A program made the position numbers and the translations under genes. Below are positions 3,341 to 47,669 of a DNA stretch of 64,000 bases, in pieces. The first letter of the stretch is position 1; each line of letters starts with the position of its first letter. Location: NCBI GenBank assembly GCA_030704615.1, contig CM060731.1, positions 29,078,001 through 29,142,000 of the forward strand, written 5' to 3'. This DNA comes from Takakia lepidozioides. Its lineage: Eukaryota; Plantae; Bryophyta. The notes beneath the pieces were generated by a model. The model was not told the DNA's origin. It saw only the letters and a list, made by a program, of their open reading frames with translations, and ran no database searches.

Positions 3341-3346
3341 GCATGA

Positions 3347-3428
3347 GGGGGAAAAAAACAACGCGAGGAGTTTGAACCCGCGACCTCGCGACACGCAGGA
3401 GGAGCCCTTACCAATACGCTACATGCAC
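3347..3428 (-). mobile_element. tRNA-derived (SINE-like) element
   Basis: Minus strand has box A-like TAGCGTATTGG, box B-like GGTTCAAACTC and then a T-run. No convincing cloverleaf. Confidence 0.5.
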
Positions 3429-3669
3429 ACATTTGAAATTTCCCCCCAAAAGTATGTATATATTGTATATACGTGATGGGCAACTTTTTAAGTTTTTTTA
3501 ACCTTTTCACAAACCCTATCAGCAATTTTTTTTTTAATTTTAATAAATAAATTTTAAGGGAAACCGCATGCCCTTGAGGAGGGGGAAAAATTAACCCCCT
3601 TTCATTTATGGGCCATGAGACCTACAGGAGGATCAACGCCCAGACATACCGTCGTCACAAACAATCCCA

Positions 3670-3745
3670 CACATGGAGTCATGCAGCGGGATTGAACCCT
3701 GAACCACCAGGGCGACACACTCTGCACTTACCAGCCGATGTGCTT
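3670..3745 (-). mobile_element. Second tRNA-derived (SINE-like) remnant
   Basis: Minus strand has box B GGTTCAATCCC with a degenerate box A (..CGGCTGGTAA). Confidence 0.4.
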
Positions 3746-3794
3746 CATTTAAAGCTTTTGCACTTTGATTTTTTTTAAAAAAAATTCATTTTAG

Positions 3795-5404: not shown

Positions 5405-6198
5405 AATGGTTTGTAACATGGCTGTGTTGTTATCATACATCTTCTATATGACATAAGGTCCTTTCCATGGTGCCTTCATCAAATTGATCCTTCCTCTTCA
5501 TCTGAATTCTGGTCATGTTATCTGCTGCATCAGCACGTACTTCTTCCACATGATATAATTCATGTTTCCTGACTTAATTGAATCCTCCAATTCCATTCTC
5601 CTTCCCCATTCATTCTCATGGTAGGTAACAAGAACTCCACTGGAAGTAAAAGCTTCCATACCATAAACTAATTGGAATGGTGTATACTTGGTTGTGACTT
5701 TAGATGAAGTTCTGTATGACCACAAAGCTGTCAGAAGCTTTGTATCCCAATCTGTTATGTTTGCATTGACTATCTTTAGCCAAGATAGTGCATAGTATTT
5801 TGTTTGTGGCCTCTGCCTGCCCATTACCCTATGGGTAATAGGTTGTACTTTTCCTGTGCACAATCATGAATTCGTTAATCAGTAGTTCTATAGTCTCGTT
5901 AATGAAGTGACTTCCCTGGTCACTAATAAATTCCAGAGGACAGCCAAATCTTGTGAGTATGTTCTCATACATGAACCTTGCTGTGGACTTAGCTGTGTTG
6001 TCCCTCAGAGCTTTAGCTTCCACCCACTTTGTAGTATAATCAGTTGCTGTGATTATATACTTGTTCTGTGTATTTCTGGCTGGTGGGTTAATTGGTCCAA
6101 CAAAGTCTAGTCCCCATTTCTAAAATGGTTCAGTAGGCATCGTAGGATGCAAAGCCATCTTCCCAAATCTCTGCAATGGTCCTAGCATCTGACACTCA

Positions 6199-6891
6199 TC
6201 ACAACTCTTGCAATATTTTGTGTACATCCTTGAACAAAGTAGGCCACCAGTAAGCTGCAAGTCGTATCTTTCTACTGGTAGTCTCTTCTTCAAAATGACC
6301 TCCAGCCACTCCTTTATGAACTTCCTCCAAAACTTTATTTACTTCATGGTGGTACAAACATCGTTTAAGAACTCCATCAGGTCCTAGCTTATACATTCTG
6401 CCCCCTATCATAGTGTAAGGTAAATCCTTGATAGCTATTCTCCTCTTCTGCTCCTTCCCATAACTAGGTAGGCACTGACCATGAGTAAGGTAGTATCTGA
6501 TTGGCCACTGCCAATCTAACCAATCATCTGCACTTTCCTGCACCTCCACTGCAAATAAACTCGCATCAGGTAGTTGGTCGTCTACTCCCGTGGCGGGCTC
6601 TCCTGTTGATAGACGTGACAAGTGATGTGCCACAAGATGCAAACGGCCAAGCTTGTAAACAACTTTGAACTCAAACTCGTGCAAGATTATTAACCATCTT
6701 GCTATCCTGCCACTTATCAAAGGCTTGTTCACCAGATAAATCAAACCCTGATGATCCACATAAAACATGAACTTCCTTCCCAATAAGTAATGCCTGAAGT
6801 TCTCGACTGCATAAATCATTGTCAATGCTTCTCTTTCAGTTGTGCTATAGTTCTTTTCAGCACTGTTCATCAACCTGCTAGCATAGTACAC
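6199..6891 (-). pseudogene. Gypsy RNase H / integrase zinc-binding region
   Basis: ORF translation: NYSTTEREAL..FYVDHQGL..RIARW..H..GGHF..YWWPTLFKDV. Confidence 0.9.
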
Positions 6892-9800
6892 AGGTGAATC
6901 TATGTTTCCTGTAACATTTGGGCTAACACTGCTCCCAATGCTTCTCCTGAGGCATCACAGTGAATATGAAATACTACATGCCAATGAGGGTTAATCAGCA
7001 CAGGTGTAGTTGTTACTGACAATGTAAGTTCCTCAAAAGCCTACTGATATTCAGCTGTCCATGCAAACACTGCATCTTTCTTCAGAAGCTTGCTCAATGG
7101 TGCTGTTATCTGTGCATACCGTCTGACAAATCTTCTATAATAACTGGTTTGTCCAAGGAATCTCCTTAGACTCTTAACATTCCTGGTGGTGGAGAGCTTA
7201 ATAGCCTCTGTTTTCTAGGATCCACAAGCAGTCCCCTCTTACACACAATGTGTCCCAAAAGTACCCCTGAGTTCACACAGAGAAAGTACATTTTCTGGAT
7301 TCAGGCCCAGACCTCTCATCCTGCATCTGGCCAAACATAACTCCAATTTATGCAAGTGCTCATTCCTAGAACTGTACACACTGAAGTCATCTAAGAACAC
7401 ATGCATGAAATCATCCAGATACTCATGGAAGATTCACTTATCACTCTTTGAAAAGTTTGCTGGTGGTGCATTACAAAGTCCAAAAGGCATGACTTTGTAT
7501 GCATAAGCACCCCCAGTCTGATGATGAAAGCTATCTTTCCCTGGTCTTCTTCTACCACTTGCACTGGTTATACCCACTGAAGCCATCCATGAATGAGGAC
7601 ATCTCATGGCCTGCCACAGTGTCCAGCACCGCTTCTGTGAATGGCAAAGGGAAGGGATATTGCTTGGTACAAGCATTCAAATCTTATAGTTCACAAAACT
7701 CTCAGTTTACCATTCTTCTTGGGAACTATCCACAAGGGTGACAAACCATGTTGTATACTCTATCGGTATATGAACTTAGCCTAACCAACTTCTTGATCTC
7801 TTCTCCAACCTTCTGTGCTAGTTGGATTCATCTGTACCTTGCCTGTTTGATTGGTACTGACCCTGGTTCCAGTTCAATCTATGTTGACAGATCTCAGGTG
7901 GTATCCCTTTGAGATCCTCATAGCTCTAAGCAAATACATCTCTGTATTTGATGAACAGACTCTTAGCTCCTCAAAGAATTATGGCTCCAAGTCGCCCCTA
8001 CTTCACATTTTCTCGTTCCTCCCCAGTTCTGCATTCACTTCTCTCACCTGCTCATCAGCGTGATTGGCCAACCAATCACTACTTCATCCTGTAAAACTCA
8101 CAGTGGCTGGTCTTCTAGGATTTTCCATTTCTCCCTCTCTTCTTCATAGAAATGTGGTGGGAACTGCTGTTTCACCCTCAATTGGTGTTGTTATTATACA
8201 CCACAGCAGATACCTTTTTGAACAACTTAGGCCTTCCAGTTGCATTTCTGCAACCTGCTCCCACTCGGGTTGCAGCGAATAGGGTAGCTTCCTGCTCCTC
8301 ATCAAGTCATTCCTCCAGTCATACTCTCTGACTGCTCGAGGTCTTCTCGTAGTAGCAGTCTACTAGATTTCTTAGTGGTGATTTGTATCTTGCGCTCCCA
8401 TCATGCACAGTTTGTAACTGGGAAATTCCAGTCATGGAATACCCTGGCCTGTTTCAGCCATGGTCGACCCAGCAATAAAGAGTAAACTTCCATGACATCA
8501 TCCATTTTCAATACAGTCACTGTGATCTTAAAGATCATCTTTTGAATCTGTATCTTAACTCCTCTTATCTAAGCTAATGGCCTGAACCACTTCTTTGATC
8601 CGCCATTGTTACTGTGAATGGGGCTGGTTTCATTACTTAGACAAGCTTCTGCATTAATTGGTCTGTCATGATATTCACTCTAGAGCCTCCATCTATCAGT
8701 ACATCAGTCAGGTCTGTGCTTCCAATTCTCAATTGGATTACTGGCATAGAATCAAAGTCCATGACTGTTTCTCGCCCTTCCGGCTTCACATTATAACTGG
8801 TCACCTTGCTGGTTCATGCCTGTGTGCTATTGTCACATGGGCAATCTGATTGATTGCTTGATACAACCTATGCCTACAATGAGGTGCCACAGCTAATAGC
8901 TGTCCAATGGTAATCTCCGCTTTGGACTAGCATATTACTTCAGCCAATAGTCCCTCATTACCCTGCACTTGGGCACTTCTTTCTTCACTCATTTTCACTT
9001 ACTTCATCTTCTCTTTCGAATCAGAGGAATCTGCCATAGGGATATCAGTACTCTTCTGTATTTCCCTTATGGTATCAGTCACTTCCTTGTGCAGTTCCTT
9101 CTCATCTCTCCAAGCCTCATCATCTTCAGGCACATCACTGCCATTTTCATTATCATCATCGTCTCATCTACTGGAGGTATTAGTTTAGTTTTGTTCTGGT
9201 TACTATCAGTACTACTTCTGGTACAACATAGGCCAACCATGTGAGGCTGCCACCCACTGGGCCCTCATTCACATGAGCTCTCATCTCTTCTAGTTCTAAT
9301 CCAGAATGAACAGGAGGCCTTGCGATGTCCTGCCTGATTACAATAGTAAACACAGGTCTTCCGATTGGGTCCCGACCTTGATCTGCTCTGGGATTATTTC
9401 TATAATCTGATTCCCTTGCTGGTAATTCCCCCTTGGATTACACTGAGAGTTGCCTCTGGGATTGCCTTGCAATTCCCTCTTGGATTACCTCTCATTTCCA
9501 TACCATTGTTATAAAACACAAAAGCCCTTCCATAGTGGTCCTGATCATTGTTTCTTCTTGGCTGGGCTGCACTTGACTGCCCCTTACTTGCCTAGTTCTC
9601 TTGCCAGCGTTCTTCTGTTGTAGTAACAATTCTCAATAGAATGTTCATCCATTTGACAAATAGTACAGTGTTTCTCCTTCATGTGGCATTCAGTTGTGGT
9701 ATGGCCTTCATTTGGCATTTTGCCACACCAAACACCCTTCCTCCAAGGTTGCAGGCCCTCTATGGCATACTTCTTCAGGAATCTCCTCCAGTCTTTTCTC

Positions 9801-12477
9801 ATAGTTTTCCCTCTTCAACTTTTTCCTTTTCTTACTCTTCCTTTTGAGCTCGTGCTCTTCTTCCTCATGAATCCTCTTCAGAGTCCTCATAATCCCTTTT
9901 CCTTCTTCTGAGCATACCCAATTGCTCAATTCTGTTGGCTGTTTAAAAGGACTCTTCCACTGTATTATGGGGTAGCATATCCACTTTCTTTTTAATTTCA
10001 GGTCTTAATCCACTCACAAACCAGGTCTTCCTGTAACCCTGATGCTGGCACAACAGCCAACTTTTTCATCATCAATTCATCTTTTTCATGTACTCCTCAA
10101 CAATTCATGCTCTTTTGCTTTAACTATTGTAAACTCCCATGACACTTCATCCTCAGTTTGAGTGTCCTAAACCTGATTTCGGAATGCTAATACTAGGGCC
10201 ATCCAGGTTAGGAAATGATTTCAGGGATCTTGCATACCATTCACTTGCTTCTTTAAATAAGTGAAAATGGAAACAGTATAATCTTGGCATCATCGTCATT
10301 TTCATTGTTCCACAATACACATGTGGTCAAATTGGCGATGTGTACATCAGGATCCCATTTTCCTGCATATATTGGAAAATGTGGTTTTGCCCGTGTGGTT
10401 GTACGACATCTATGCCCTCACCCTGCCCCATGACAGGTTGCTGGTCCCCCTGCTGGTGCTGGGTCCTTGAGGACCTGATTGTAGTAGTGGTGGAAACTCC
10501 CACCAGGTGCTGGCCCCCCTGAGCCACTCCTTGCTACTGGCCCCACTATATTCACAGTATTCCCAGCTCCAGTTGCACTACTTCCACACTCCCTGTCCCC
10601 CAGAGCCAGATCCAGGCTGCCCGTCTGATCCCACTGAGCCGACACCTCGTTGGTCTGTGACCAAGTGCTCCACTTGATCTAGGTCCAATAGGTTGGGATG
10701 TCCTGGTTGTAGTCTCAACCTCAACATGTGGGTCTACTTCTCATACTCTTCATCTTCCAAATTTCTTCTCTTGTTTTCATCTTCCAAGTTATGCCCTTGG
10801 GTTTCTTCGTCTTCACTCATGTAACTCAATTGCAATGGTGTTGGAGAGTATGAACTATCCGTTGGCTCTGCCACTCCTCCCCTCCTTCTTTGTCTTCCGT
10901 TTTAGAAACTGGAGTTCCTGCTTTTGGTGTTCCATGCCAACTCTTATCAAAGATTTCTGTCAAATCTTTTATCCAGGGATGTACCTCAGATCTCTCCCCT
11001 CGTGGCTGATCTTCTTCCTGTACCAAATCCCTTAATCTTTCTTGTAAAGAATAAGAAGGAGTGGCATCCAACTCTGGTTCCTCCGGTATGGGTGATGTAC
11101 TCTTCGACCTTAATGGTGTGAGAGGTCCAGATGATTCTCCTATGTCTATTCCTCTCTCCCAAAGATATGGATAATTAGCTTTCAATAACTCTCTTTTTGC
11201 TGAATATCTGTGAAGTCTACCTTCTCTTTCATCACTCATGTCCCATGTCTTTCATATCTTCAATGAGGCAATAACCAAAACTCTCTTCCGTAGTATCTCT
11301 CGTATATGCCTGGGTTTCTTTCAAGCTTCAATGCGCCCTTGGCTATACTAGAAGTCTCTGTTACCATATATCCATATGACAAGCACGTCTGAAAAGCTAT
11401 TCTTGGTGTCAGTTTGATCCACATGATATCCTTAGGAATCCAATTCTTTACTAGTACCAACTCTTCATGAATGCACATGAGTGTAAACATTCACTTTCCG
11501 TTCCTCCCAGCCTTCAAACTCCACTCGTTTAATGGATGACAACGCTACCACATAAACCAGCGTTGGTAACCAACTTGCTCTCCCTCTATAGGCCACCTGA
11601 TAAATCTTTATCACTCCTTTCTCCAGACCCCACTCAGGATCTGCATCATGCACTCTCTTAAGAATGTTTTTTTTGCAACCGTCTGGCAATTCCAAGAATC
11701 TCTGAAAGAATTGCTTGGACAACCTTTCTTTCTCAGTTCCACAGGGAATTTGATTCACATCAAATTCTTTAATTCTCCAACCACCATGATCCCACCAGAT
11801 GCCTGTCACATCTGGTTGTTCTTGACCCAGTTCCCAGTATGGTCGCCAAATGTCGAGCGGCTTTTACTCACCCATCCCTTCGCTATCCGAGGTGGAAACT
11901 CCAAGATAGAAGAGTTGGATATCTCTAAGCACTCAGCCCGCTCAGAACAATCAGTCATGACCTACAGCTAGTGAATCATGGTTGTGCTTCCTATTTGTAT
12001 TCCTTCTTGCCTTCATGTTAGCAAATTATCTTACTGCGTATACTGAAGCATCAGATTGCTTCAGTATCTACCAGGTTCCATTCACTCATCCATTCATTCC
12101 ACAGCTTCACTCATGTCTCTCTACACAATGTGATTGTTTCGAATAAGTATCAGATTAAGATTTATCAAGTATCAGGCCGAAGCCATTGTGTCTTTAATTT
12201 GCTCTACAGTATCATTACAGCTTTGCATGTAACAAGCATCTACTGTTCATCTCTCCTCCTTCACCGTGCTCACCATCCTTGCTCCCGTTCTTGCTCTCTG
12301 CCCCTTCTCCTCCCGCCAATGTCCAAGAAGTGCCCCCCGTGAACTCCCCTATGATGCTTGCTCTGCCTATTTTATCTACAAGCTGTTCTAACCGCCTAAC
12401 TAACTAACTGTCACCTAAGAAATAAACACGTTCCCTCTGCAGATGTCATTCCCTGCCAATGATAACCGTTCCTATGT

Positions 12478-12660: not shown

Positions 12661-15600
12661 CTACCCCCCCCCCTCCTAAAGTCTGCGCCTGTCACCCCTA
12701 AGGCCTCTGTTGGTCTAAGTCTACCATTCGTAAGTCTGCGCAAAAATTAAGGGTACCCCACAAAACCCATAAAAGTGTCTAAGTCCCAGACAACCCTCTA
12801 ACATAGGCCATAGAGGGTCTATTCCACAATTCACCCTGTTTTATCGGAGCTCCGAAGACCAGCTTTGGAGTGCGGGGCAACTAAGTTGCGGTATCTCAGT
12901 GGTATTACCCCAATATTTTTTTCGTTGTTTTATTGGAGTTCCAAGGATGAGCTTTGGGATTCAGGGCAAGCAGGTTGCGATAACTCAACCCCCATTATTT
13001 CTTTTTTCATGTTTTTGTCTCTCCATGTTCTGAATACAGTCTTATCAGAGTCCGGAGGTTAAGCTTTGGGCGCATGACAACTCAGTTGCGATAAGTCTGC
13101 ATTTTTAGTCTTTCAAGGAAGTCATCAACACCAAAAGGGACGGTGAAGCTCCTCTTTGAAAGCATTGAGGTCTGTTTTGGTTGATTCAGCAACGGTTGAG
13201 TCGTCCCGGGCCATTTTTCAGGTGTTGGCGCCATTTCAATGGTATTTCATCCAACATTGTATTTTGGAGATCTTACCACAACAAGGGAGATTTTTGTCAA
13301 TCTTATTCTCTTTTCTAAAGGCTAATATATATTAGTTTCTTCTTTTGAAAGATTCTTATCTTTCTTTTGTTTTATCAGGCCCTTCAAAGGTATATATATA
13401 TATATTTTTTTGATGCGTTTTTCCTCATTTTCTTTGCTTAGATACTTCAAATGTATTGAATATTTTGGTGCTGATGCAGTTCATCAAAGTGGTCGAACGT
13501 TTTGTGCAGTTGGGAAAATGACGGGACGAGCAACTACATGCACGCACCCGCCTAATGCACTCTGTAAAAAACACTCGCTTGTCTTGTCATGCACATTTTT
13601 TTGTCCCGCTGGGACTATCAGTCAGTATTCATTCTTGCTATATCAAGTATCTGCTTCAGAATCGATGCTTTCTGCATAGAGCACGGTGACTTCCTGAACG
13701 TGGATTTCTAACTTTTTTCCTCAGGTAGCAATCATCATAGTAGTGGTGTGTCTGTCATCTTTCTCCACCCCGCTGCATGATTTCATCTCATAGAAGAGAG
13801 AAAAGTTATGAAGCACGATGAGGGTGTAAAATGGGAGCGTAGAGTGATGGTTGTCGCTACCCTCACCAGAGAATTCTCAGGGAGTTGAAAAGCACTAAGA
13901 GGCCAGCTCTCCTTCTTTTTCCTTTATAGCTCTTCCAAGTAGGAAGACAATTTTGCTTTCATAGAACTTCTAAGTGAGTTTTACAATTCTTGCCAGTGTT
14001 GCAGTACAAGAAGTACACAGTTTTTATCATGAGAGTAGTTAAGAGAAATTCTCTTCCTCCTTGATCCTCCATCTGCTGGATAAGGTGAGCTTTCTATGAG
14101 AGAGTAATACATCCAGTATGTTTGTACCATTTGAGCTCCATGGTGAAAGTATCTATCGTAAGCTTCATCATGAGAATATTATGTTCAGCTCCACCGTGAA
14201 GGCTTCACAGGTGATGCTTTGTTGTTAAAGCTCGGTTTTGTTGGCGCGGTTGCTGTATGAGCCGGTCGACTCGAAGCTTTGCTTCTCGGTCTACTCCGTC
14301 TTGGGAATTCAAACCCAGTCCAGTGGGGGAGAATGGTGGTTTTGAAAAGTTTTTTTTATCTGGGACTCGAACTCTCTCCGAAGAGGGAGAGTGGATGGGT
14401 TTTCAACATTTTTTATCTTGTGAGGCGCGGGACATAATTATTCCTATATGACGCCAAAGTTTTCCGTTCTAGCGAGTAGCTAGGACCTTATGTCATATGA
14501 TCAGAGTTGTTGGTGTCAAGGTCAGCGAGAAGCACATTAGTTCTTGAACAAAACTCGGTCATAGTTATCCTCTTAATGAATGAGAGAGCACAAAGAAAAA
14601 GAATGAATTCACAGGGATCACCAGGATACTGTCAGAGTCAGACAAACTGTAAGACCAAAGAGAAAAACCCCCCATGAGTCTGCAAGTCCAAAGTTTTTTT
14701 TTTTTTTGCTAGCTTCCAGTTTGAGCCAGATAAAAGGTCTAGGTCAATGGTAAAGCCGATCATGTTTTAGTAATGTGTGTACCTATTTAGAGAGTTGTCA
14801 AACCAGTGATTCAGGGTTCTTTCACCCTCGGGACGAGTGTTCCCCATTGGTCGCAAGTGTTTTTGAGGCAAGGAGAGCCGATTTGTACATAGACAGCGAC
14901 GAAACAAGACCATTTGTATCGGAAACGTCAAAACGTCAACGTGGCTACTGGTATGGCCCACAAATGGAAGAGGTATGTGACGTCCATGAAGCCAAAGCGC
15001 TTAGGAGTTTATATGACTAGGGTACATGCAGGGAGCAGCAGGGCGTGCGATTCCAGTCGACCGTTTGAACATCTATGGGCCGATTAAAACGACTGTATGC
15101 AACGGTCTGCTGCCTATCCTCACCTCAACATCCGATCGCTATTCAAGCAGTGGAAAGTTAGGAGAGCTTGACCTCAATGACAACTACCCACTGGGTTATT
15201 CTTTCAACGACACGGTTGACAACAGTCTCGCAATTCCAGGTAGAAATTTCCACGTTGCTCCAATGCAGTTCATGAGGACGCCGGAGACGTGGAGCACACA
15301 TGCTCATGATACAATTTCATTTTCATGCTCGGATAAGTCAGTGACAGGGATCAAGCATGGGTTCCCTTGTGTTTTAGTTCATTCATGCAAAACAAACACT
15401 GCAGTGCGGCAAGTAGCAGACTACTGGAAGTGATCTTTTTTCCCCAGGAGGACAATTCCATCTTTTGGTATGATTTCAATTCCAGGAGCTTCCAAGGAGT
15501 CTTGGTCTCCTACAAAAAATCATAAAGAGGTTTTATCTAGCGGTAGCGGCCGACTGGGATTTTGTTGTGTTGAGTACCTTCAGCGAACAGGACGAGGTCG

Positions 15601-16059
15601 TAAACAAGCGCTGTTTGTGGAGGGATTTTTATGATGTGGTTAAAAAGGAGACAAGATGATGTGGAAGGAGTTTCAGCCCCTGGCATTGATCTGTTCCCAA
15701 CCAAAAAATTATGCTTCGCGTTGAAACATAGTTTTCACGTAAAATTAGCGCTTGTTTATTTTTTATGGTTGATGATTGGACCACATGAAATTGAGGATTG
15801 GTGGGTGTTTCAAGCATACCACAAGGGAGTTTGTGGCCAAGTTTTAAGAATTTTGGAGGAAGTTAGCAACAATTCACTATTTTTGAGGGTTTCGGGCGAC
15901 CGTGACCAAGAGAAATTCATTTTGAGGGTATTTTTGGGTCCACAAGAATCAGCACCGCCCCCAACCAGCTGGTTGGATGATTTGTGCCACCTACCAACCA
16001 AGAAGTGGTTGATTGCCTATTCCATCCAAGGATTTTTGGATGTCATCCATTCTTTTTTT

Positions 16060-17300
16060 ATAGTATTTATAGTATAAGTAGGTTAGGATTTGAGCTTGCT
16101 CAAGATTTCACTTGTGTTTTTTTGCTTGTTAGTTAGTTGCTTGAAGCTAGCTTGAGAAGCTTGCTTTATGTTTTGGCAACTAGCTTTTCTTGTGAAGTTC
16201 CTAGATTGCTTGTTGGCTTAAAGCTTAGCCTAGATGTTTTAGGCAAGCTTGGAGGAAGCATCTAGTTTGTGCTAGGGAGACTAGGGAGATCCTAGGACCT
16301 AGTGTGTAAGGGCCAAGAACCATTTTTATGTGAAAAAATAGAGCATCTTCCCCAAAAAGCAAAGAGGTTTTGTCATTTGAGAGTGTGGTGAGCCCTTGAG
16401 GAGTGAAGAAGAGGTAGGAGCAACAAACCCCATAGGAGAGGTGAGCACTACCCCTTCCCTTCAAGTTTTGGTAGCCTACGTAGCCAAGTGACCCCCTTTG
16501 AGTGGAGAGAATAGAGTCTTAGCCCTTGTTCATGTGTGATGCATTTTGGTGTTCTCTTGCTTGTCCATTGTTGTTGGAAGCTTATATCTAACCTTAGCTT
16601 GATCCTAGCTACCTAAAGAGTAGTGGGAGCTTGGGAAAGAGAGAGACTAACCCTCCTTAGTGGCCAAGAGGCCCAAGGAGTTGTCATTTTTATCTATGCT
16701 TTGTCTTTTGGCTTAAGAGTGGAAAGATCTAACCCCTAGAGAGCTAACCATGCAGTGGGATCTCTAGGAGGGGTGTGGGTTCTCTTTGTTGTTGGCCACT
16801 AGGCTTGATGTTCATGTGTGAAGCTAGTTAGGCATGCAAGGGAAGCTAACCCACTAATATTGGGTGGATGCTTGCATAGACCTTGTGGGAAACCTTCTTT
16901 TGTTTTGTTATTTCATTCCATTTGGCGCATATGAGTGTAGCTTAGTGTGCACTAAGCCCTCTAGACTTGCCATTTATTTGTCTTTTTGTTAAGCATATCA
17001 CCACCCATAGGAGAGGAGCAAGGTGGAAGAGCTAGCAAATTTGTGATGTTTTTTTCAAATTTATTTTGTCACTGGAAATTTATTTTTCATGCATAACTAA
17101 TTTACAGATCAAAAATCAGATCTAATATGGCCTCCCTAGCTTGGTTAAGCTATGGCCATAGCTAACCATTGGGAAGGTTAGGCTAGCCCATTTGGGGTTA
17201 GCTTGGGGTTTATTTCTTTGTTTTTTTGTAGGTGCAAGCAAAAGACCATGGATTTATGATGGGGTTCCCAAAAGTGAGGCGCCATAAAGGGGATACCATG
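16060..17300. mobile_element. Probable LTR/UTR-type retrotransposon remnant
   Basis: Composition only (ctag/aagctt-rich, non-coding). No boundaries or TSD identified. Confidence 0.3.
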
Positions 17301-17669
17301 GCAATAGCCATGAGTTGGCTATTGGTTTGAAGCGGGCTGTAGGCCCCGCGGAATCCGAGGCGTTGACCACCCCAACCCCCAAGCTGCTCGACAGCAGCCA
17401 CGTAGGGGGGTTAGGCGGTGCTGGCCACCTAAGCGTAGTCTGGCTTTATCCAGTGGTCCATCGCTTTACCCGGGCGGCCGCGACCAGCGGATCGTCGGCC
17501 CGCCCTACCACGTGCTGCCACGCTGCATTGCGACCAGCGGGTAACTAGGATGGTCCGGACCAGTGGGTAAGAAATTAAGGGGGGGTCTTAGCTAGGAAAA
17601 TACTTTTTGAATGGTCTTGCCTAGTTCGACTGAGGGATTCGTGGAGGGCGGTTTGAGGAGTGTATATAG

Positions 17670-18985
17670 GATGCTCTCATGCATGATATGGCGGAGTTGC
17701 TTGCCATGGTTGCTCACACTCCATTGTGGGGCTCGAGTAAGGATTTGTAGCGGGTTGGTGATCGACGGGTGCAACAAGCCTGGGTAGAGGCTTTTGTACC
17801 GTCAGGAGAGGAGGAGAGTGCGGGTATTGCACCAGGTCCATCTCAGTTGTCACCATTGGACACCGCACCGATCGTGTGGCAGTGTCCGGATGAAGGCATT
17901 TGCCTTCCGGACTTGTTTGGCGGGATCAACACCGGATTGGCTACTGTGCTATAGGCAAGTGTACGGGTACGGCGTTACTTGTATGTGGAGATGGATGAGA
18001 CTGCACGACGCGTCTCACTCCATCATGTTGCTCAGTTGATGCAGCAATATCCTGAGTTATTGCCGGTGTCTACAGTTCGTGGATATCAGCAGGCCTTGCC
18101 AGCAGACATTTCGTTGCTGGGGGTGCAAGATTTGGCTCCATTGATCTAGTAGTGGCAGGTTGGCCTGCCAAGGGCATTCATCAGCCGGCATGACAATGGA
18201 TTACGAGACTCAAGGTCGGGTCTGTTTTGGGAGATGGTGTGGGTTTTGCGCCACTTACAGCTTCATCAAGCTGTATCTCCAGCGTACAACTTGGAGAATG
18301 TGCCATTGATGGGCGATTCTCGGGCCAGGGTGATGGCCAGTGTGCATCAAGTCCGGTCGTGGCTTGGGTCAGCAGTGTTGCTGGATGCAGCTATAGTGGG
18401 GTCTCGGGCTCATCATCCATGGCTATGGTGGACTAACTTGATGCCACCCACACTGCTCAAGCGTGCATTTGATGGGGTGCAGCGGCCAACACACCTCACA
18501 GCGGATAGCATTTTGACACAGGGAGGCAGTATCAGCATGTGAGATACGATGACCGTTCGCCTTTGGCAGTGGTCAACAAGGTGGGTCAACCACGAGCAGC
18601 ACTACCTACATTGCTCAGCTTCCCAGGATCGTATGCTTTCCGGGATAGTGGACCTGGCCTCCTGTGGGATGCTCAGCTGCAGCAGTTAGTGGAGCCTAAT
18701 GCCGACGAGCGAGAGCGGGCTATGGGTTTTTCCACTGGGACCACGGCGATGCCTTCTCTTTCTGAGGCATCACGTTGTCAGGTGTTGGGGCAAGCGATGG
18801 ATCTCAATTGCTTGACAAGGATTATCAGCTTGGCTATGGCTGAGCAACGTAGAGTGCGGAGTGCACTTCCCTTGACGGTCTCTCTACCTACCGAGACGGT
18901 ACAGGCAGTGAGTGGGGGCGAGCCGGTGAGGACCACGAGGTGTAGACATCCATGGCACACGTGGGAGGTGCTTGAGGTTCAGAGG
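17670..18985 (+). pseudogene. Intronless C5 cytosine DNA methyltransferase domain (degenerate), probably TE-borne
   Basis: Motifs occur in canonical order: I DLFGGINTG (17910), II YLYVE, IV VAGWP/CQGHS (about 18152-18180, 1-bp frameshift), GLRDSRSGLFWE, VI LENV (18291), VIII AHHPWLWWTN, IX ERERAMGF, X R..VLGQAMDL. Stops and frameshifts are present. Confidence 0.9.
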
Positions 18986-20350
18986 TGTAGAATAAAACTA
19001 TAATCGATCCTCTATAAAAGAATCAATCAGTCTAAAGTTCGTTCGCTGGGGAAAGCACTATACGATTGTAAAATAACGATGCTAGACTATTCTATCTTTC
19101 TCTATCTCTTCCTTGGATCAACTTTTACTACCAGTCATCTTCATCTAACACGATCATCATTCTTCTAGATTCATAAATATTCTCTCCATCTTCTATTAAC
19201 TCTGCTCCATCGGCCGAAATTAAATACCATTGCTCCACTATATTTTTCCTCCAATAATCTCTCTCATACAAGGTCAACAACTCTCGATACCATCCTTTAT
19301 TTACTAACCATAGGTTGATTATCTCTCTGTCGCTACATTGTAATCGTTAAAACTATCTAGAGACAAACTATCAGGCAGTCCAGTAATTAATTCTACAGGA
19401 TATGCTATCCGTTCTCCTTCACACATCACTAGCGATCACTCTTTACCACCAATTTTGTTTCTCCAGTTGCTCCAGGGATTTTCCCTCACCAAAATTATGA
19501 TTCCATTCTCTCATAAGTTCAGGATAGCCTTCAAATGGTCGATACCACTTCTGCGACCAACTATGCTTCCAATAACAACTCCGGTATAGGATGTATATCT
19601 CTCTATACCATCCTCTATTGACTAATTGCAATAAGAATACTTCTTTATCACTACAACAAATCTTCTGAAAGATTATTATTGATAAATGATCTGGTAATCC
19701 AGTGATAACTCTGATACTTCCTTTATTCCCTCATCATTGTTTTCTGCCATGCAAATGATTTATTTCACTGTTGTACTCCTACACTTAATCCAACTAAAGA
19801 CTCTCTCTCTATCTTCGTTTCCTTAATCTGCTCCTTCTTGAACTCTGGATATCCATCTATCGATATTTCTCTTGGTAGAGCAAAAACTAATTCTCACACC
19901 GAATTCTTATCTTTTTCATGTGTGCGCATTCTCACCATCTCATATAATTATGGTTCTTCAGTTCTTACACACACAGAATCACATTCTCATTCCATCACTC
20001 CATTCTTCACACATACACAAAGTGAACTGCACTTCATTTTTCTCTTTTATTCATTCATAAATCACAACACTGCAAGAACGCAGTACTAAATCTACCATTG
20101 CAGAATAACTCTATAGTCTACCTCCTACTCACTCTACTCTCCCTACTCCGGTCACGGCTCTCTGGCTCAACTGACCCTTTTTGCTTTTCATGAACGTATT
20201 ATATAGTAGAGCGCTTCAATAACTGTAATAACCGCTCAAACTCCTTCATCCATCCTTTACAATTATTCGTCCATTTCTTCTATCATTCAGTCCAAGATAG
20301 ACTATCGGCTGTATACAAGATATCGAAGACTTATCAGTGCTTGCCACATA
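18986..20350 (-). mobile_element. Probable LTR retrotransposon fragment that interrupts the methyltransferase region
   Basis: Composition changes abruptly at 'TGTAGAATAAAAC' (18986). Pyrimidine-rich sequence resembles the 5' region of the Gypsy element at 11-12.4 kb. The far end is undefined. Confidence 0.4.
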
Positions 20351-21883
20351 TGTATCATCAAACAACTTCTCTCATGCTCCTCATTAAATAAAGTTGTGGG
20401 CCAACTAATGATCAATAATTTGAAACATTGAAGACATAGTCATGTGATTGCAAGCAACAGCCTGACTACCATAAATAAATGTATGAAGATCTAACATCCA
20501 CTTGAAAGCAATAGGCTATACTGGATAGCAGAATGAGCTCAATTCTAAATCTGCAAAGAGCAATTCATGGAATCATCAACCATGGCGGGAATTGAAATTC
20601 AAGTAATTTGTGAGGTAGCTGGAGTCCTAATGCCCTTTCATCAACCCTATAAACAACACATTGCATAACGAGGATAAGGTTTGTGGACCAACTGATTATC
20701 AATATCTGAAATAGGGCAGGCATAGTTGAGTTGCAAGCAATGGCCTGATTACCTGAATGGAACCATATCTTTGTTGAAGATAGTACAAAGAAGACCCAAA
20801 TGCTATGACATGGATGTGTAAAAGTGTATGGAGCAGGTATGGGGAGACATTAAAAAAGTCTAAGAGCTGATCTGGTGATGCTGGCAGTTCAAGGCTGCCC
20901 TATTGAAACAGCTTTCTTTGCCATTTGTTCAACAGGAATTTACATGCCTCACTGGGCCAGGAGGTAAGTTGCTCGACTTAGACAGTGAAATGCAACTTCA
21001 ACTCATTTGTGCAGGTGTAGGTGGTTCATCTCACCATCATCCACAAGTGGAAAGTGAGGGTCGATTTGACCCTTCTGCAAAGTCTGTGATCTTATGGCAC
21101 AGATGCTGGTGTGGGCAATACGATTGCCAACTTCATGAGAATGGGTAACTTGTATAAACGTTGCTCAGGTTCCCTGAGATTCTTGACTGAGTTCTGTTTG
21201 CCATTGTTGCGTGTTCTGACATTTATGGTTGGTACATGGCAGTTTGTGGACAAACAATAGCTTGGGCTCACTTGGATGTTGGAGGGCCTCTGGGATCAGA
21301 AGACTGGCACATCGACTGGCTTTCCTGTAAGGACTCTGGTGAATTGGATTGCATCTCAGTCAGTGGGGAGCTGGGCTGATACTGGCAACCCAGATGATAC
21401 TGCCCCCGAGATGATGCTACTGTCAAGCGTCAACGGATATGATACTGGCACCGGAGACGAAGATGATACTGTCGACGAAGAGGAATCCGTCAACGGAGAT
21501 GATACTGAGGATTCTGTCACGATTCCTTCAACGAACATGAAAGTGTCGACGGAGGTTAATGTTTCCTTTTGTACAAAATGTGTTCAGTAACACATCTCAC
21601 AGAGAATGAACCCCACCTTGGGGCCATAGCAGCTTCACCGCGCAATATACCACACAACAGCAATAAAAGCGTCACATCATTGAAGCAAGAGTGTACTGTT
21701 TCACCAGGTAGTGTGTGGGGTAGCATTCAGATGCTTTGTGCTTATAAATGGCCTTTTCGCTATTCTATACATGGGGGTTGGCCACATGGCTCAGCATTCA
21801 AATGTCAGCAGACACGAGAGTAGTTAGGCCTGCGAATTGTTGAAGTGGGCATTGTTAGATCGGCTTATTGGTGGGGCAAGAGA

Positions 21884-24800
21884 ATGTTCCCCCCAGTGTG
21901 GAGGGGCGCAGTGGGTGAAAAAGCGCGTTGGGTATTTTGCAAATGTAGCAATTCTTCACTTGTAGATCTCGAAGTCTCGTTGCCTTCTGCGAAAGACTGG
22001 TGGGTGAATCATGCTTGGAATTCGACATTGCATAAACATCTGCATTGGGAAAATTTGTGGGCAAGGACTTGGGTGGTTCAAAATGTGGCTTCAAGCAGGA
22101 GAGAGTGCTGCAATGTCAACTTACTAGGCTTTCAAACCTCTGAGGATCTGGGAACTGAAAATCTCTCTAGGTTAGAATTTTCAAGGAAGAGTCTTAGGGT
22201 TACAGAGGATTGGGGTGGAAGAGCTGGCCAATTGAGCACCGGTACTTCTCCTTGCCGTGACTTAGAAGGAAGTGATGCTGCTGTTACAGCTACACACAGC
22301 GTTCCATATCATCAGCTGGCGAGATATAGAATTAGTGGAATTCTTTCAATGGACTCAGGGCCTTTGCAGTTGCTTGGTATACTCGGCCGTACTCAAGGAG
22401 ACCGTTCTGTCAATGTGCTTCGGAATTTTGGATTGAATAAAAAGTATCCTGCAGATCTGCAAGTTTCACAGATAGCACAAACAGGTTCAGCAAGGAGCTT
22501 TCACTTCTCCACTTCCAATTTCGCTCCTATATATCATAGGGAAGAGGGGGAGAAGCCTCCAAGGCTGCTGGTGGTGCAACCCAGGATACACCCACGCGCA
22601 ATGTTGAAAGCAAAGCTGCTGGAGGCGATGCGCCTTGCAGATTCCCTGCAGGGTCTTAGAGGGGCTGGGAAGGTCGCGTCAGCGAAGCAGGCGTCACCCT
22701 TTGTCTTAGTGCAGAGTCCTCGGTCTCCGTCATCTAGCAAGCGACTACGTGCAGGTGTTTGTTTTTGAGAGGCAGAGGGATGGTGAATTCAGATTGTGCA
22801 AGCTGCTTCTTGTCAGTCTCTTAATCGATGTTTCGAATGATGTTGGGTCTGTGAGGGAGCAGAGAGAGAGAACTTGAAGAACTAGATAGATGTTTGAGCA
22901 ATGAACTACACTACTAGAAAATAGAAACGTTTCAACATGTCGGGCTACGTATTTGAGCCATTGGTAGGGAAATTTTATTCCTTCACTCTGAATCTGGTAA
23001 ATAAAAGATTGTTGGAAGGAGGAGGAATTCTATGAATGCATACTTTTATACCTCTTAGTCTGTAACAAGTTGTTTGGATGGATGCAGGTGCATATTTTGG
23101 ACCAGGGACCATAGACATTGTGCGAGCACATGTGGATGCTGCTGCTGAGAGGGTGAGCCAACCTTCCTCTATCAGTGGTCATACCACTTCTTTGCTGTGT
23201 GTGGAGGTTATGTGACTAGCTTTTACTATCTCTTTATGTGTCTCTTGCCTTTCACTCTTCTTCAGTTCTTTCACCATTCTATAGCTAACCTTCAGCCCAG
23301 TTCGATTAGCTCAATATCTATCTGGAGTTGGTCTTTAAGACGTTCGATGGTGTTTGCTCCTACAGCACCACCACACTATCCTCAACTTTGTCTTTTGACA
23401 GTGTTAAGTGGTTATAAACAGTTCTTTCACATGCTTTACTCCTACCGAACATTGAAACTGAAATTAAACTTTGAACCTCATTAGCCTGAAAAAAGTTTTC
23501 TCTGTGTTTAGCAGGCTCCGCTGGATGCAGTCTTTGTAAATGCGAACCTGTCTGGTGTTCAACAACGCAATCTTGAGGCAAGCTCTCTCTCCTTCCAGGC
23601 ATGATTGCAGCTGGTTTTACATGAATGGACTTCAGCGACTCATTCTGTGCACTTTACATTCATTGATGCATTCTCAGGTCATGGGCTGCGGAAGTGCCAG
23701 AAATAGAATGTACTTCCCATGGATGTCAATTTCATGTGCAGTGGCAATTAGTTACTCCAAAGATTGCACACAATATTTCATGGGGCTCCATAATCTGATG
23801 TTGCATCACCATCTTGCATATCATCTGGCCCTAGTTGAGAGGATGGATGCAGAGAGAGAGAAAGGGGAAAGGACCAGAAGCTATTCAATACGCCACATTA
23901 TTTCTATAGCATACACAAGAGAGAGTAAGTGTCTTCATTGGACCACAACTACAGAGGATTGTGTATGAAGAACGTGATGGCCCTGTAGGGTTTTTTGTGG
24001 ATTTACAGGCGGCCTGGGACCGGCCCGTGCTTGACCGAGTGGGACTCATCATTGAGATCTTTGGTGCACATGCTCAAACCAAAGAGGCCAAGCTCCAGGT
24101 TGGTAGTCATATCACCTCTTGACCTAATACAGGATCTGTTTGATTTCATGTACTAGATAATGCTGTCACAAAGTATCTGTCAGAGAGCCTTTTGCAGTTT
24201 AGTGAGCAAAAAGTGAAGCACCACAGCAAGTGAAATCTTTGTTCAGTATGATCGGGTTTCGTGTAGCATAATCTTATGTCTATCTTTGTCTTTTCTCCCT
24301 GTGCATACTTTGTCTGCGAGTGTGTGTGTGACTTACTGTATCTGAACTATAGGATTGTGGGCCACAGGTGTCCAAAGACACTGTTGGCTGTAACTGTGTA
24401 AGTGGTGCTGCACCCAGCAGCATGTAGTGTTTGAGGCAGTAGATGGTAATGACTTTGAAGTGGATAAAGAGGCAATTTGTAGTATTTCACCCTCAATCCG
24501 TCATTCCCATGCAATCCCTGTTTTGCAGGAGGGAGGGAAAGAAATTCTCATGTATCTTAACAGTACCTTGTGATAGCATGCAGGTTGAGTTGGCTGCATT
24601 GAACTATAAAAAGACACGACTGGTCCGCATGCGAGGCAAAGGAGGAGCACGGCTTGGCTTTGGTATGGGCGGGGAAGCGGAGGTGGTCAGCGCTCGGGGG
24701 TAGATTTATCTCCTCTTGTGCACCTATTTTTTTGGTTATATGCATGGTTAGTCAATCCTGGAATTACCCACTTTGACTCTGGTCGGATCTTCGAGTGTAA

Positions 24801-27800
24801 GTGCCTTGCGACGTTAGGGGCTTCACACATGTTGTCTTGAAAATAGAATCCTGTACTCTCACAGGGATTTAATTACGTGGCAGCGGCTCATTTTATTGCA
24901 AGATCAAGTCTCTTAGCTCACCAACTCATTGAAAGAAGCTCTCTCAGTATTTTTTATCCCACTGTCTGTTGTTGCACACCATGTGGGCAACAATGCTGGT
25001 TCTCTTACTTCCATTTTGAAGCTTAATGCACCGTGTGAGCACTGTGTTTATCTGTCCTGTGTTTGTCTGACGAATGTGAGCAATGCTGCAGGCGAGCTAG
25101 TGGGGCCATTGGTGGGGCTGGAGAGACAGAACTTCAGTTACAACGGCGTCGGTCAGCAACTTATCCTCCTGTTTCTTGCTTTCTAAATACCATCCTTGCT
25201 TGTACTGTTTTTCTTTCTTGACCCTTAGACAATCCCTTGAGCAGTAGTTGCTTTTGGGCTGTTTTTTGGCTCTGGTTTTGATTCTGTTTTTTCCATTTTG
25301 TACCATAAGCTCTTTGAGCTTTCATTTCATTTCTTAAATTCTCCATAGGCACACCGGGCGTTTGTAGGGGAAGGATGCGAATGTCACTTTAGTTAACCAG
25401 TGTGTGGTCCTGAAGAGGTAATGTCAGGCAAAACCGGCAAAAAAGACATAAGTTTATGTCAAACACCTGTACTCTTGCGTCACGGGTTGATGAAGCAGTT
25501 GGACTCTTGCATTAAAACATCAAGAGCAACCATAATTCTTTTCTTGGGTCAGCTCTCTGGCAACATAAGGTGATTGCTGTTGAAGTTCAGAATACTTCAA
25601 ATGTGGCTACACCATGTAGATGCAAAGGGATTGCATTTCCATCACCTGGATAATCAGGGTTGAAGAAGTGACTGTATTCGTCGGAGCTGGACAGAATTGG
25701 AGAGAGGAGAAACCGGTTAAAGGAGTTACTTTTAGAAGTGCGACGAACCAGGTCCTTGCATCGAGCTGCGCGGCAAAGGATTGCAAAGGCTGGAGGTCCT
25801 GGTCTTGGTCTCCCCGTGATAGCGGTTGTCGGATACACCAATGCGGTATGCTGGTTCCTTTTTGTCTTATCAAGCAATAGTGTCCGTACTGGCACCCGAA
25901 CTGGTTCATTGTCAGGGTCTTGCAAATCTTGGGGTGTGGGGCTCTTACTCTGTAAATCTTATAGTTGACAAGAGGGAACAGACACTACCTTTGCGAGGGG
26001 ACTTACCTTGATATAAACAATTATTTTTCGGGCTTTCCAGATATCCTCTAGATAGCCCTTTCACACAAGCATCAATCTGCTGTGTGAGCTTCCCAGCAAT
26101 TAGACTCCGGTGTAGATCATTACATTGAATGTGATTGAAGCAATTGCTAACATGTTCACAAGAGGCAGGAAGCTGCACTGTGAAGACATTCTTTTGCACA
26201 ATCTCTCTCTCTCTCATGCTCCAAAACAGCTAATGTGGCTGTTTGGGGTGAGTTTGGCATCCCTCCCTTAAGCTCCCGACGAGATGAATTCAAGGTCAGA
26301 TGGTGGGGTGAGCTGCAACGTAGGACTAATATCAGATATCTTAAGTTAATCGACTCCATATCTTGGAAGCAGGATCACCCTGTCAAACAGGCTAATCCCT
26401 GGCGGAAGAGGGTAGAAGAGATTCTCAAGGATCTGAATCTCAGTCCTCAAGTCTTGACCCTACTGGATAAATCTGATCTAGAGGCTGTAGTGTCCAAAGC
26501 CATGTCTGTTGCGAGGAAATTTTCTGATGAAAATGAAGTTCGGCAGAAAACTTCCCTGAGCTTGTTTCCAGTCTGAGACATGGGGGAGGCCATCATGGAC
26601 GACCTTAAGGGTTTACCCACTCTTGGCACTAGACTGAAATTTAAACTCAGGGCTACCTTTGAACAGCAAACAGAAGCAGAGAGGAAAGGGGAGTTTGTAA
26701 TGCCCGTTGTGTGGGCAACCTGAAGACAATTTCCGCTTTCTGATTCATTGTCCTGGGTATTCTCACCAGAGTGACAGCATCTTCAAATCCATCAAGGGAA
26801 TTGTCCCTGTACCTCTGTTTGCCAACTTTGAAAATCTCGAGGCTGAGCCAAAACTCTTGGATAACTAGACTTTTGGGGTCTAGTTATTGGGCAAATCACA
26901 GACAGCAGATTGATGTTTGTGTGAAGGGATTTCTAGAGGATATCTGGAGAACTCGGATCAATTGTGTGTTCCATGGAAAGTCTTACTACCGGCGTCAGCC
27001 CCCCCCAAAGGTAGTTTCTGCCTTTGTGTTCCGCTCAAACTGGGCGTGGGATCAATGGCCACAAGGCTACGGCAAACAACATCTTATGAGTACATTCTCT
27101 TTTCACCCATCAGGAAAATTGTTCCTACACCTCTGTTCACCAACTTCGAAAATCTCGAGGCTGAGCCTAAAGTTCTGTCGTGAGTAAAAGAGTAGATCAG
27201 CAGTTTTGCAGGGGCTAAATCCTTCTGATGGTCACTAAAACTTTCATCTGTCCAACTATGCTGCTATGGGAAGCCATGTAGCTATGAATTCAGACATGAC
27301 TGTTTTTATTACATGGGTCCGTGTATGACATTGCCATTTTGGGGGCTGGGAACTGTCTAGGGAAAGTCGTCAATGGTGGCTGCGCTTTCACAGAGCAATC
27401 TTTACGTTGATGATAGGTAAGAAGATTGTGAAAGCTTGCTACTTGCGGCCAGAATCTTGCTATTGTCTCAAGGAGGAGTGAATTGTACTTCAACAGGGCA
27501 GTTTTTAATCATCTGTTTTCTATTTATTGTCTTATGGTTCTACTTAGGGAAATTTGAAAATAGGTTCTACTCAGAGATATCAATCCATTTAGTAGTTGGT
27601 GACTTCAGGCAGGAGCTAAGAATTTGCTGTAAGGAAGGTGTGTCTCTGCAATTGGACATGTGTAAATAATTTATAGCTCCTCCTGTTCCATAGTGCTCTG
27701 CTCTTTCTAGCCTCTGACTAAGAAGAGCATATCGCTGCTACCGGCAGCTGATTTGAAACTGTCGTATGCTCTCCCAGTCAATGGACATTGGTCAAGGTTC

Positions 27801-30800
27801 CTGAAATCTATTACATTTGCCAATCTCCTTGCGTATCTACCTCTTTTCTCCCTCTCTGCTGACAACTCATGGAATGTCAATCAAATGGACTGCAGGCTGT
27901 TTGCAACCCTTGATTCTCGTGCACGCAGCGTGGTGCTTCCTTCCGGGTAAACATATTTCTGGTTGTTCCGGGGGTTCTTGTTTGTGACCCAGCACTTGTA
28001 GTGGTATGGTGTCCACAATGTTGTGTCCCCCAAAGGATCTCTGTTCTTCCTTTCTTTCTCTCTCACACATCTTCAAGTGGGGGTGCTTAAGGAGTGTATG
28101 TCAGCATGCTCCAAAACAGCCAATGTGGCTGTTCGGGGTGAGTTTGGCATTCCATCCTTAAGCTCCCGACGAGATGAATTCAAGGTCAGATGGTGGGTCA
28201 GCTGCAACATATGCCCAACACCAGATATCCTAAGTTAATCGACTCTATATCTTGGAAACAGGACTGCCCTGTCAAACAGGCTAAGTCCTGGCAGAAGAGA
28301 GTAGAAGAGATTCTCAAGGACCTGGACCTGGATCCGCAAGTCTTGACCCTGCTGGATAAATCTGACTTAGAGGCTGTAGTGTCCAAAGCCATGTCTGTTG
28401 CCATGAGATTGTCTGATGAAAATGAAGTTAGGCAGAAAACTTCCCTGAACTTGTTTCCAGTCAGTGACATGGGGGAGGACATCTTGGATTTGACCTCAAG
28501 GGTCTACCCACTCTCGGCACTAGACTGAAATTTAAACTCAGGGCAGGAAGCCTACCTTTGAACAGCAAACAGAAGCAGAGAGGAAAGGGAGAGTGCAATT
28601 GCCCGTTGTGTGGGCAATCTGAAGACAGTATTCATTTTCTGATACACTGTCCGGGGTTCTCTCACCAAAGAGACGCTCTCTTCAACTCTATCAAGGGAAT
28701 TGTGCCTGTACCCCTGTTTACCAACTTTGAAAGTCTCGAGGCTGAGCCAAAAGCCCAGGCCCTCCTGAGGCCTAGTTTTTGGGCAAATCACACACAGCAG
28801 ATTGATGCTTGTGTGAAGGGATTTCTAGAGGATATCTGGAAAACCCGGATTAATTCTTTATATGAAGGTAAGTCTTACTACCAACGTCAGCCCCTGACAG
28901 AGGTAGGTTCTGTTCCTTTTGTTCCCGCTCAAACTGGGCGCGGGGTCAATGGCCACAAGGCTACGGCAAACAACGTCTTATGAGTACAATCTCTCACACA
29001 GCCACAAACAGATGCAGAGAGGAAAGGGAGATTGTCAATGCCAGATGTGCGGGCAGCCTGAAGACAAAATCCATTTTCTGATACAATGTCCAGGGTATTC
29101 TCATCAGAGAGTGACCCTCTTACATAGTCGCTGTACCTCTGTACAACAACTTTCAAAATCTCAAGGCTGAGCCTAAAGCCCTGGCCCTGTTGGGGTGTAA
29201 TTGCTGGGCAGCTCACACACAGCAGATTGTGTGAGGGGCTTTCGAGAGGAAATCTGGAAAGCCTGAACTAATTGTTTATATTAAGGTAAGTTCCACTACT
29301 GGGGTGAGCAACTCACAAAGGAAGTATCCTGTCCCTCTTGTTCTGCCCAAACTGGTTGCAGTGTCTATGGCCACAAGGCTACAACACACAACATGTTATG
29401 AGTACATTGTCCCACACGCAGACGCAATATATGCACATATGCCTCTGCTTTCTGTGCACTTGCAAATAATGTTTTTTGATCTAGGTGGTGACTGCTTCCC
29501 AGACATCTTAGCTAATGCGAAGACCTAGAATTCATTTTACTAGCAATCTCAATATCAGGTTGGGATGGGTGAAGGCTTCTGACACATCCAAATTTAATTT
29601 CTCGCTGAATCGCTTGATATGGTATTTTGAGATTAAAGCTATTAAAAGTGTGTGACAGTGGTATTGTTGACATGCAGGCAAAGAGTGTTGCTAAGTGACA
29701 CTGTTGGTTTCATCTCCGACCTGCCAATTCAAGTAAGGGCCAAGTGGGGCAGTGTCTGTTGTTTGACTTCCCTTTGACCTGTCTGAGAAGTTTCTTTGGT
29801 GTGCTGTGCACACCCACGAGAGGTTTATGTCACATATGCAAGACTTGGTGCATTTTTTTGATGAGTCTCAAACGCTTTACTCAGGATACATTGGCTACAA
29901 ATGAATACACCTTCATGTCTGTGTTTATGCATGTATAGGTGTGCCTCTGTACATGGAGAATAAATGTGATGGATGGGTCCGTCATGTGTTGCTTGCCAGT
30001 TGGTTGAGGCATTCCAAGCCACATTGGAAGAGGTGGTCGAGGCTGACTTTTTGCTGGTGAGCCTCCTTTGCTATTCCTGTGAAGTGAGATGCACCTTTGT
30101 GCCAATGTATCCGGATACAACGCTCGCAGCTGGTCCTTTTTGTCATTGCACTTGTTTATGAAATCACGGGTACAAAAGGTTCCCAGGTAATAAGTTCAGC
30201 TAGCTGTGAGTCAATGTTGAGGTTGAGTGACGTGCAGGGTTCACTCAAGTCGAATGAGGTTGTGTGCGAAGGACTGATGTGTTACTATATTGAGTGGTCA
30301 CTATGGGTGTGATTTCTGTTCTGTTTGTGGGAGTAGTATTTTTGTTTTGTGTTGGTGTTTATTGTCATTGGTAACCAATTTGACACCCAGCTTTGTGGGG
30401 GCTTGGCAGCATGTGATTGACAGCAGCGCCCCAAATGCAGATGAGCAGCGAGAGGCAGTGTTACAAGTGCTACGGGAAATCGGTGTTCCACAGGCCAAAC
30501 TCGAAACCTGCATGGTGGAAGCTTGGAACAAGGTTCTTCATAGTGACGCTCTGTGTGTGGTTGGTGAGAGGAGAAATTTGAGAGAGGCTTGTGAAACCTG
30601 ATAATTACGTGTGATTACTCCGTAACCTTACATTGAGGATAACTGCTGGCTTCAGTCCTGCAAATACGTGGGGTTGTTGACCTCTGCATGTGGACGTTCC
30701 ACATTGTTTTCGACACATCAAGTGGAGAACAAAGGTCTGATCTAGAAAAGGAAAGCAAGGGCTTCTGATGCAAGGGGGACACAAGGTGAAAATTTACTCT

Positions 30801-47665: not shown

Positions 47666-47669
47666 GGAG

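Follow-up and report, generated by a model that had tools for sequence, protein, structure and literature searches.

A decayed fragment of a DNMT3-encoding Ty3/Gypsy retrotransposon family in the moss Takakia lepidozioides

Results

A truncated methyltransferase relic among repeats

We analyzed a window of 64,000 nt from Takakia lepidozioides (contig CM060731.1, positions 29,078,001 to 29,142,000). It contains a methyltransferase fragment of ~1.3 kb that is truncated at both its 5' and 3' ends, and a second, shorter fragment of the same family (Table 1). Aligned with the main copy, the second fragment is 79% identical at the DNA level (181 nt) and 72% identical at the protein level (79 alignment columns).

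Table 1 Features of the 64,000-nt window and the evidence that defines them
Feature	Position in window	Strand	Basis
ORF1 3'-end fragment of a DNMT3-carrying Ty3/Gypsy element	17673-18985	+	tblastn with relatives; loose ends of other copies
Protease-methyltransferase linker (protease absent; stop at 17748)	17673-17885	+	alignment to Marchantia/Calypogeia polyprotein linker
C5 cytosine methyltransferase domain of DNMT3-like type, with motifs I-X running linearly	17886-18871	+	translation, family profile, relatives
ORF1 tail, beginning only	18872-18985	+	breaks off upstream of the stop and RT conserved in relatives
Smaller fragment of this methyltransferase family, covering motifs IX-X	46165-46419	-	DNA and protein identity
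Unrelated repeat, left context	14801-17672		summed depth; no family-locus match
Unrelated repeat, right context	18986-20400		summed depth; no family-locus match
Tandem array	1-2700		
DUF4218 piece	3816-4166		
Decayed ordinary Gypsy element without methyltransferase	5500-11900	-	
GTPase exons with GTP-bdg_M domain	24443-31200	+	
Auxin response factor gene	37753-42652	+	
PPR E-motif, DXP synthase and DnaJ-X pieces	47356-48260		
Recurring pieces from near the tandem array	near 50100-50500		
Zinc knuckle and RT pieces, presumed LINE-like	52278-56298		
Nested Gypsy pair without methyltransferase	57259-63704	+ (integrase); - (protease-RT-RNase H)	

The window also holds an intact-looking auxin response factor (ARF) gene that is closest to Physcomitrium ARFs. 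One of its exons shares 75-79% identity with Physcomitrium ARFs and at most 68% with flowering-plant ARFs. Over the whole gene, summed scores were 657-802 bits for six moss-like proteins, compared with 437-612 for five full-length seed-plant proteins. The 12 proteins compared were selected from matches that included no fern or lycophyte ARFs, and a search with the middle region of the ARF returned none. On this evidence the host would be a land plant, probably a moss. The GTPase, which we take to be HflX-like, has long introns with a duplication at 1.9-kb spacing. Three unrelated gene pieces packed into about 900 bp resemble transposon-captured gene fragments. The units of the tandem array are about 368 bp long and 89-95% alike.

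Three-frame translation of positions 17200-19100 located the methyltransferase motifs that the initial annotation had claimed in canonical order, all of them between 17910 and 18802. These are motif I (DLFGG, 17910-17924), motif II (VEMD, 17985-17996), motif IV (AGWP/CQG, with the catalytic Pro-Cys), motif VI (ENV, 18294-18302), motif VIII (18405-18431), motif IX (18692-18727) and motif X (LGQAMD, 18785-18802). The motifs are numbered as is usual for C5 methyltransferases, aided by an HMMER alignment of one relative to DNMT3A. Motif IV is interrupted by a frame change at 18166, and two arginines of the family are substituted in motif VIII. Further frame changes lie near 18135, 18187 and 18514, giving four in the domain, and a second in-frame stop, at 17952, falls within it. 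Relatives align colinearly and without introns to 17673-18973, with 50-68% identity and E values of about 1e-130. The description of this domain as intronless and degenerate was borne out. The window copy is a dead, doubly truncated DNMT3-like C5 methyltransferase relic.

A family profile scored the two main window pieces at 290 and 189 bits, whereas 10 shuffled windows scored no higher than -2; this test is partly circular, as the profile was built from relatives retrieved with the window itself. A Pfam scan of three window pieces matched no domain, and PF00145 was detected by Pfam in intact relatives. Coding-like sequence had been described as continuing on both sides of the domain, as within a polyprotein. 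It reaches no more than ~70 codons upstream of the domain and ~40 downstream of it, and no polyprotein continues here. We found no protease or RT adjoining the methyltransferase, and full-length family proteins compared with 9000-30000 matched nothing besides the methyltransferase fragment. The window copy thus stands alone, with an unrelated repeat on either side. Summed depth is about 740-3050 in the left repeat (bins 14801-17470) and about 700-6000 in the right one, and neither matched the 72 family loci described below (blastn for the left repeat). The right repeat starts with TG exactly at the 18985/18986 cut point. It is likely a later insertion, an order of events that we infer.

Relatives are complete Gypsy elements that encode the methyltransferase

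With the last window piece as query, we retrieved 90 homologs. The best named ones came from Sphagnum jensenii, Calypogeia fissa, Marchantia polymorpha and Riccia sorocarpa (60-68% identity). A Spirogloea protein was also present, and no vascular-plant names appeared among the named homologs, which are the minority. A metagenome scan added 72 related loci, several of which are one insertion recovered twice and thus not independent; the main family of these loci is near-identical to the named Sphagnum proteins. Other retroelement domains were found in 61 of the 72 loci, RT lay downstream of the methyltransferase in 43, and the full order gag-zinc knuckle-protease-DNMT-RT-RNase H-integrase-PHD was present in 10. 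When 1.84 billion representatives were searched, 2363 matched, 230 of them at E values up to 1e-30. Among 143 new matches, 59 of the 61 long representatives carried retroelement domains.

Three complete relatives (L036, L058 and L064) have split repeats, with repeat A (about 340 bp) 5' of the genes and a B-A-B arrangement 3' of them. The B-A-B terminus is also displayed by L010 and L053. All three complete elements are flanked by a 4-bp target duplication, which points to integrase-mediated mobility. Their termini are of the TG...CA type, two of the three beginning with TG and the third with TA; the window copy has no termini. A purine run precedes repeat B in the complete relatives, and no tRNA primer site was obvious by eye after repeat A in these three elements. 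One internally deleted copy (L027:7627-11830) lacks RT and RNase H, so that gag-protease-DNMT runs directly into the end of integrase and the PHD; it may be a non-autonomous form that retains the methyltransferase.

These relatives uphold the proposal that the fragment is the embryophyte relic of a methyltransferase-carrying retrotransposon. We are almost certain that the family consists of Ty3/Gypsy elements of bryophytes encoding a DNMT3-like methyltransferase, of which the window stretch is one fragment.

The family is very abundant in the species of the window

Two sequencing runs, X1 and X3, contain the unique flank of the window without differences. They therefore include its species, and may derive from the source sample. 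In these runs, the summed contig depth was 236,000-1,001,000 on the methyltransferase and 47-125 on unique window DNA. The former is thousands of times the latter, although depth sums are not copy numbers. The methyltransferase family is very abundant in this species. Loose contig ends stack near both cut points, with 31 contigs of X3 at 17678 and 19 of X1 plus 35 of X3 at 18985, which indicates that other copies extend beyond them. The gag, RT, RNase H and integrase regions of the complete element L006 were covered up to 170,000 in X1/X3 at 80% likeness, a level at which the uncovered bins (repeat A and protease) carry no information.

Run X7 contains a minus-strand contig of 2173 nt (depth 24.4) that differs at 10 positions from window 18758-18985. 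A contig of identical length, depth and strand matches L006 in RT and RNase H, colinearly spaced, and the two matches are equated by these three properties only. The distance from DNMT to RT is about 980 nt on the contig, compared with about 920 nt in L006. A single contig thus appears to link the end of the methyltransferase to RT and RNase H in the species of the window. Together with the 61 of 72 loci, it runs counter to the refuting outcome named in the initial annotation, that no copy is linked to retroelement domains.

The enzyme is DNMT3-like and its domain is conserved

All 29 PDB sequence matches of relative P0006 were to DNMT3A/B/C. We modelled the natural open frame of locus L003 (pLDDT 94); its top fold matches were DNMT3A/B (E 9e-20), and all top matches listed were DNMT3. 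BAH, chromo, UBA, PWWP and DUF3444 domains were absent from 32 relatives scanned with Pfam, as were BAH and chromo domains from the window ORFs flanking the fragment. From the comparison of these two relatives, we predict that the enzyme is of the DNMT3 class and not DNMT1/CMT, DRM or bacterial. Together with the linear motif order, these matches agree with the earlier statement that the domain is not MET1, CMT or DRM.

The catalytic Cys was present in 61 of 61 sequences, and the three ENV residues in 59, 64 and 63 of about 64. In 37 sequences ranging down to 31% identity, the catalytic Cys, the Glu-Asn and the motif VIII arginines were at least 90% conserved. The dN/dS of the methyltransferase was 0.11 between the window copy and the loci and 0.16 in deep pairs, where dS is saturated; that of RT was 0.08-0.11 in the deep comparison. 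Among close copies, the methyltransferase had a dN/dS of 0.56-0.75, a range expected where dead copies decay, but higher than the 0.30-0.40 of RT/RNase H (at dS 0.15-0.4). The low ratios of the deeper comparisons indicate long-term selection on the methyltransferase across liverworts, mosses and algae.

C-to-T decay in the copies was 0.24 at CG, 0.27 at CHG and 0.075 at CHH sites, compared with about 0.01 for the reverse change. This implies that the copies were methylated, but does not distinguish whether by the enzyme of the element or by the host. Ordinary silencing by the host would explain the pattern equally well.

A conserved stop separates the methyltransferase from reverse transcriptase

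In the alignment, an in-frame stop separates DNMT from RT in each of the 40 copies that retain the site (28 TAG and 12 TAA), compared with stops in 6 of 40 at the next most stop-rich alignment column. The alignment comprised 41 rows, one of which is deleted at the site, and two rows with nested insertions were excluded; the 40 rows represent about three lineages only and include repeats of one insertion. CAA directly follows the stop in 37 of 40 rows. The context CARYYA, reported to promote readthrough when it follows a stop (PMC3441728), occurs exactly in three of the 40 rows, all from one divergent lineage. The main lineage has CAACCC instead, and an ATG lies two codons later in 36 of 40 rows. 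Because of this nearby ATG, reinitiation is possible as an alternative to readthrough.

The Marchantia and Calypogeia ORF1 proteins terminate similarly, 72-76 residues past the domain. The stop was seen in bryophyte-side relatives, and the window copy ends upstream of its site. In some deeper, Closterium-side relatives, DNMT and RT lie in one ORF. With the stop placed after the methyltransferase, the enzyme would be produced in amounts like those of Gag, and from this position we regard Gag-level expression as quite probable.

Phylogenetic placement of the methyltransferase

We built a tree of 49 domains selected from 197 usable ones, with a quick method, SH-aLRT support only and no true root. 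The window copy fell into a group of 13 with Marchantia, Calypogeia and metagenome loci (support 100). Five Closterium proteins formed a deeper group on the same side. All 17 proteins with the methyltransferase between RNase H and integrase lay on the opposite side (support 99), and a FastTree of all 197 rows was concordant. An RT tree had five rows with DNMT before RT and one distant outgroup, and does not fix the order of events. The presence of relatives in bryophytes as well as in Closterium and Spirogloea suggests a family of greater age and range.

The arrangement with DNMT between RNase H and integrase belongs to a second large Gypsy-PHD radiation that makes up 93 of the 197 domains in one tree group (P0059, P0066, P0224, P0227, P0244 and others). 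Its members are nearly all metagenomic, and some carry G-patch. P0051, which is labelled as a bacterial metagenome-assembled genome, sits within the retrotransposon DNMT clade and is likely mis-binned plant or algal DNA.

Discussion

A proposed role for the methyltransferase

The explanation that we favor as a whole, with modest confidence, is a bryophyte Gypsy family with DNMT3 whose active copies methylate their own new DNA. In such copies, each round of translation would yield ORF1 (Gag-protease-DNMT), and only ribosomes that occasionally read through the stop would go on to RT and integrase. Packaged into the particle at Gag levels, the methyltransferase would be released by the protease. 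It would then mark the cDNA before or during insertion, and the new copy would enter the genome already methylated like host DNA. That cDNA is the main substrate, as proposed for algal elements, seems to us an even call. The window copy is incapable of any of these steps.

The same element might instead use its enzyme mainly on host chromatin, at insertion sites or loci in trans, or by diverting the silencing machinery. We consider this unlikely, although it would account for a predicted Gag-level expression that exceeds the need of one cDNA, for the very high abundance of the family and for the chromatin-reading PHD finger that the element also encodes. However, the PHD lies on the integrase side of the stop, and Pfam scans found no targeting domain with the methyltransferase. 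Moreover, the methylome of Klebsormidium nitens, the alga that hosts the element KnitGypsy-Dnmt3, is ordinary and plant-like in the available parts of its description (PMC5890265).

Less probable still is that the domain is retained for a non-catalytic or non-DNA role, such as nucleic-acid binding in the particle or RNA methylation. An RNA function has been suggested for another class of retrotransposon DNMT. KnitGypsy-Dnmt3 gave no DNA methylation in yeast, a result that its authors judged inconclusive according to the sections available (PMC5890265). The conservation of the catalytic Cys, Glu-Asn and motif VIII arginines described above argues against such a role, as does a fold that is that of the DNA-acting DNMT3.

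The window copy taken by itself, intronless, DNMT3-like and with no adjoining RT or protease, could be read as a processed pseudogene or duplicate of a host DNMT3 in repeat-rich DNA. This origin is very improbable and largely refuted. The linker and tail match retrotransposon polyproteins, the depth is thousands-fold, a contig apparently links the domain to RT, and DUF3444 is absent from the 32 relatives scanned. The nearest tree neighbors are retroelement proteins, in a tree built without host plant DNMT3. A domesticated functional host gene, or an insertion of a bacterial or giant-virus methyltransferase, is the least credible origin: the bacterial label of P0051 and one weak viral-contig match (38% over 64 residues, at one locus of 20 pattern matches) are outweighed by the place of P0051 inside the retrotransposon clade and the uniformly DNMT3 PDB matches, and a functional window copy is contradicted by its two stops and four frame changes, one of them within the catalytic motif.

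Returning to the favored reading of self-methylating elements, we can extend it only tentatively to the history of the family. The methyltransferase Gypsy lineage would be a pre-land-plant inheritance of streptophytes that survives in liverworts and mosses, with thousands of copies in this moss. A leaky stop and Gag-level DNMT3 would pre-methylate new copies and add a source of de novo methylation. We regard this full scenario as doubtful.

Although methylation is the principal defence of plants against transposons, this family retains its own DNMT3 under selection. The role of transposon DNMTs has been open since 2018, and Symbiodinium and Klebsormidium are hard to test. Marchantia polymorpha is genetically tractable and its copies are annotated as hypothetical proteins, which makes the role of the enzyme testable. 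When the DNMT genes of bryophyte genomes are counted, transposon copies can be among them.

Comparison with known systems

Retrotransposons carrying DNMTs have been described in algae, and a land-plant form with a conserved stop appears undescribed in the open-licence literature searched. We found no land-plant description of such elements in open-licence PMC and bioRxiv articles, and subscription papers or supplements could hold one. In the portions available, Sarre et al. 2025 (PMC12344493) goes no further than "streptophytes and dinoflagellates", for which it cites the 2018 paper, and its trees and tables may include bryophyte copies. The accessible parts of PMC11982613, PMC11244446, PMC9477723 and PMC10952607 yielded no relevant mention.

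The DNMT3 of host plants shares the linear motifs, the DNMT3 class and bryophyte hosts with the family. However, the host proteins PpDNMT3a/b carry DUF3444, as far as the excerpts of Yaari et al. 2019 describe them (PMC6453930), whereas the family proteins lack it and lie inside a retroelement polyprotein.

SymbioDIRS-Dnmt3 of Symbiodinium is likewise a retrotransposon-borne DNMT3-like domain, and it methylates CG de novo in yeast, according to the text available (PMC5890265). It belongs to a DIRS element with a tyrosine recombinase, whereas the bryophyte family has a DDE integrase and 4-bp target duplications.

Green algae also contain PHD-finger Gypsy elements, of which Gypsy-7a_cRei (PMC9940879) and REM1 (cited in PMC6673714) are examples. 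As in the bryophyte family, the order RT-RNase H-integrase is combined with a PHD. Unlike in the bryophyte family, the figure legend for Gypsy-7a_cRei names no methyltransferase (PMC9940879).

The closest described counterpart is KnitGypsy-Dnmt3 of K. nitens (de Mendoza et al. 2018; PMC5890265), whose capture of the domain was interpreted, in the available sections, as specific to the K. nitens lineage. We liken the two by their described features; no Klebsormidium-named protein was among the named homologs. According to the same sections, both have the Gypsy domain set and an intronless, unrearranged DNMT3-like domain under purifying selection, and by the figure legends both share the A-coding-B-A-B repeats. 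They differ in the placement of the methyltransferase, which is described within the Pol ORF in KnitGypsy-Dnmt3 and lies at the end of ORF1, with a stop before RT, in the bryophyte family. The hosts are an alga in one case and liverworts and mosses in the other, and, as far as the published description extends, the bryophyte family appears far more abundant.
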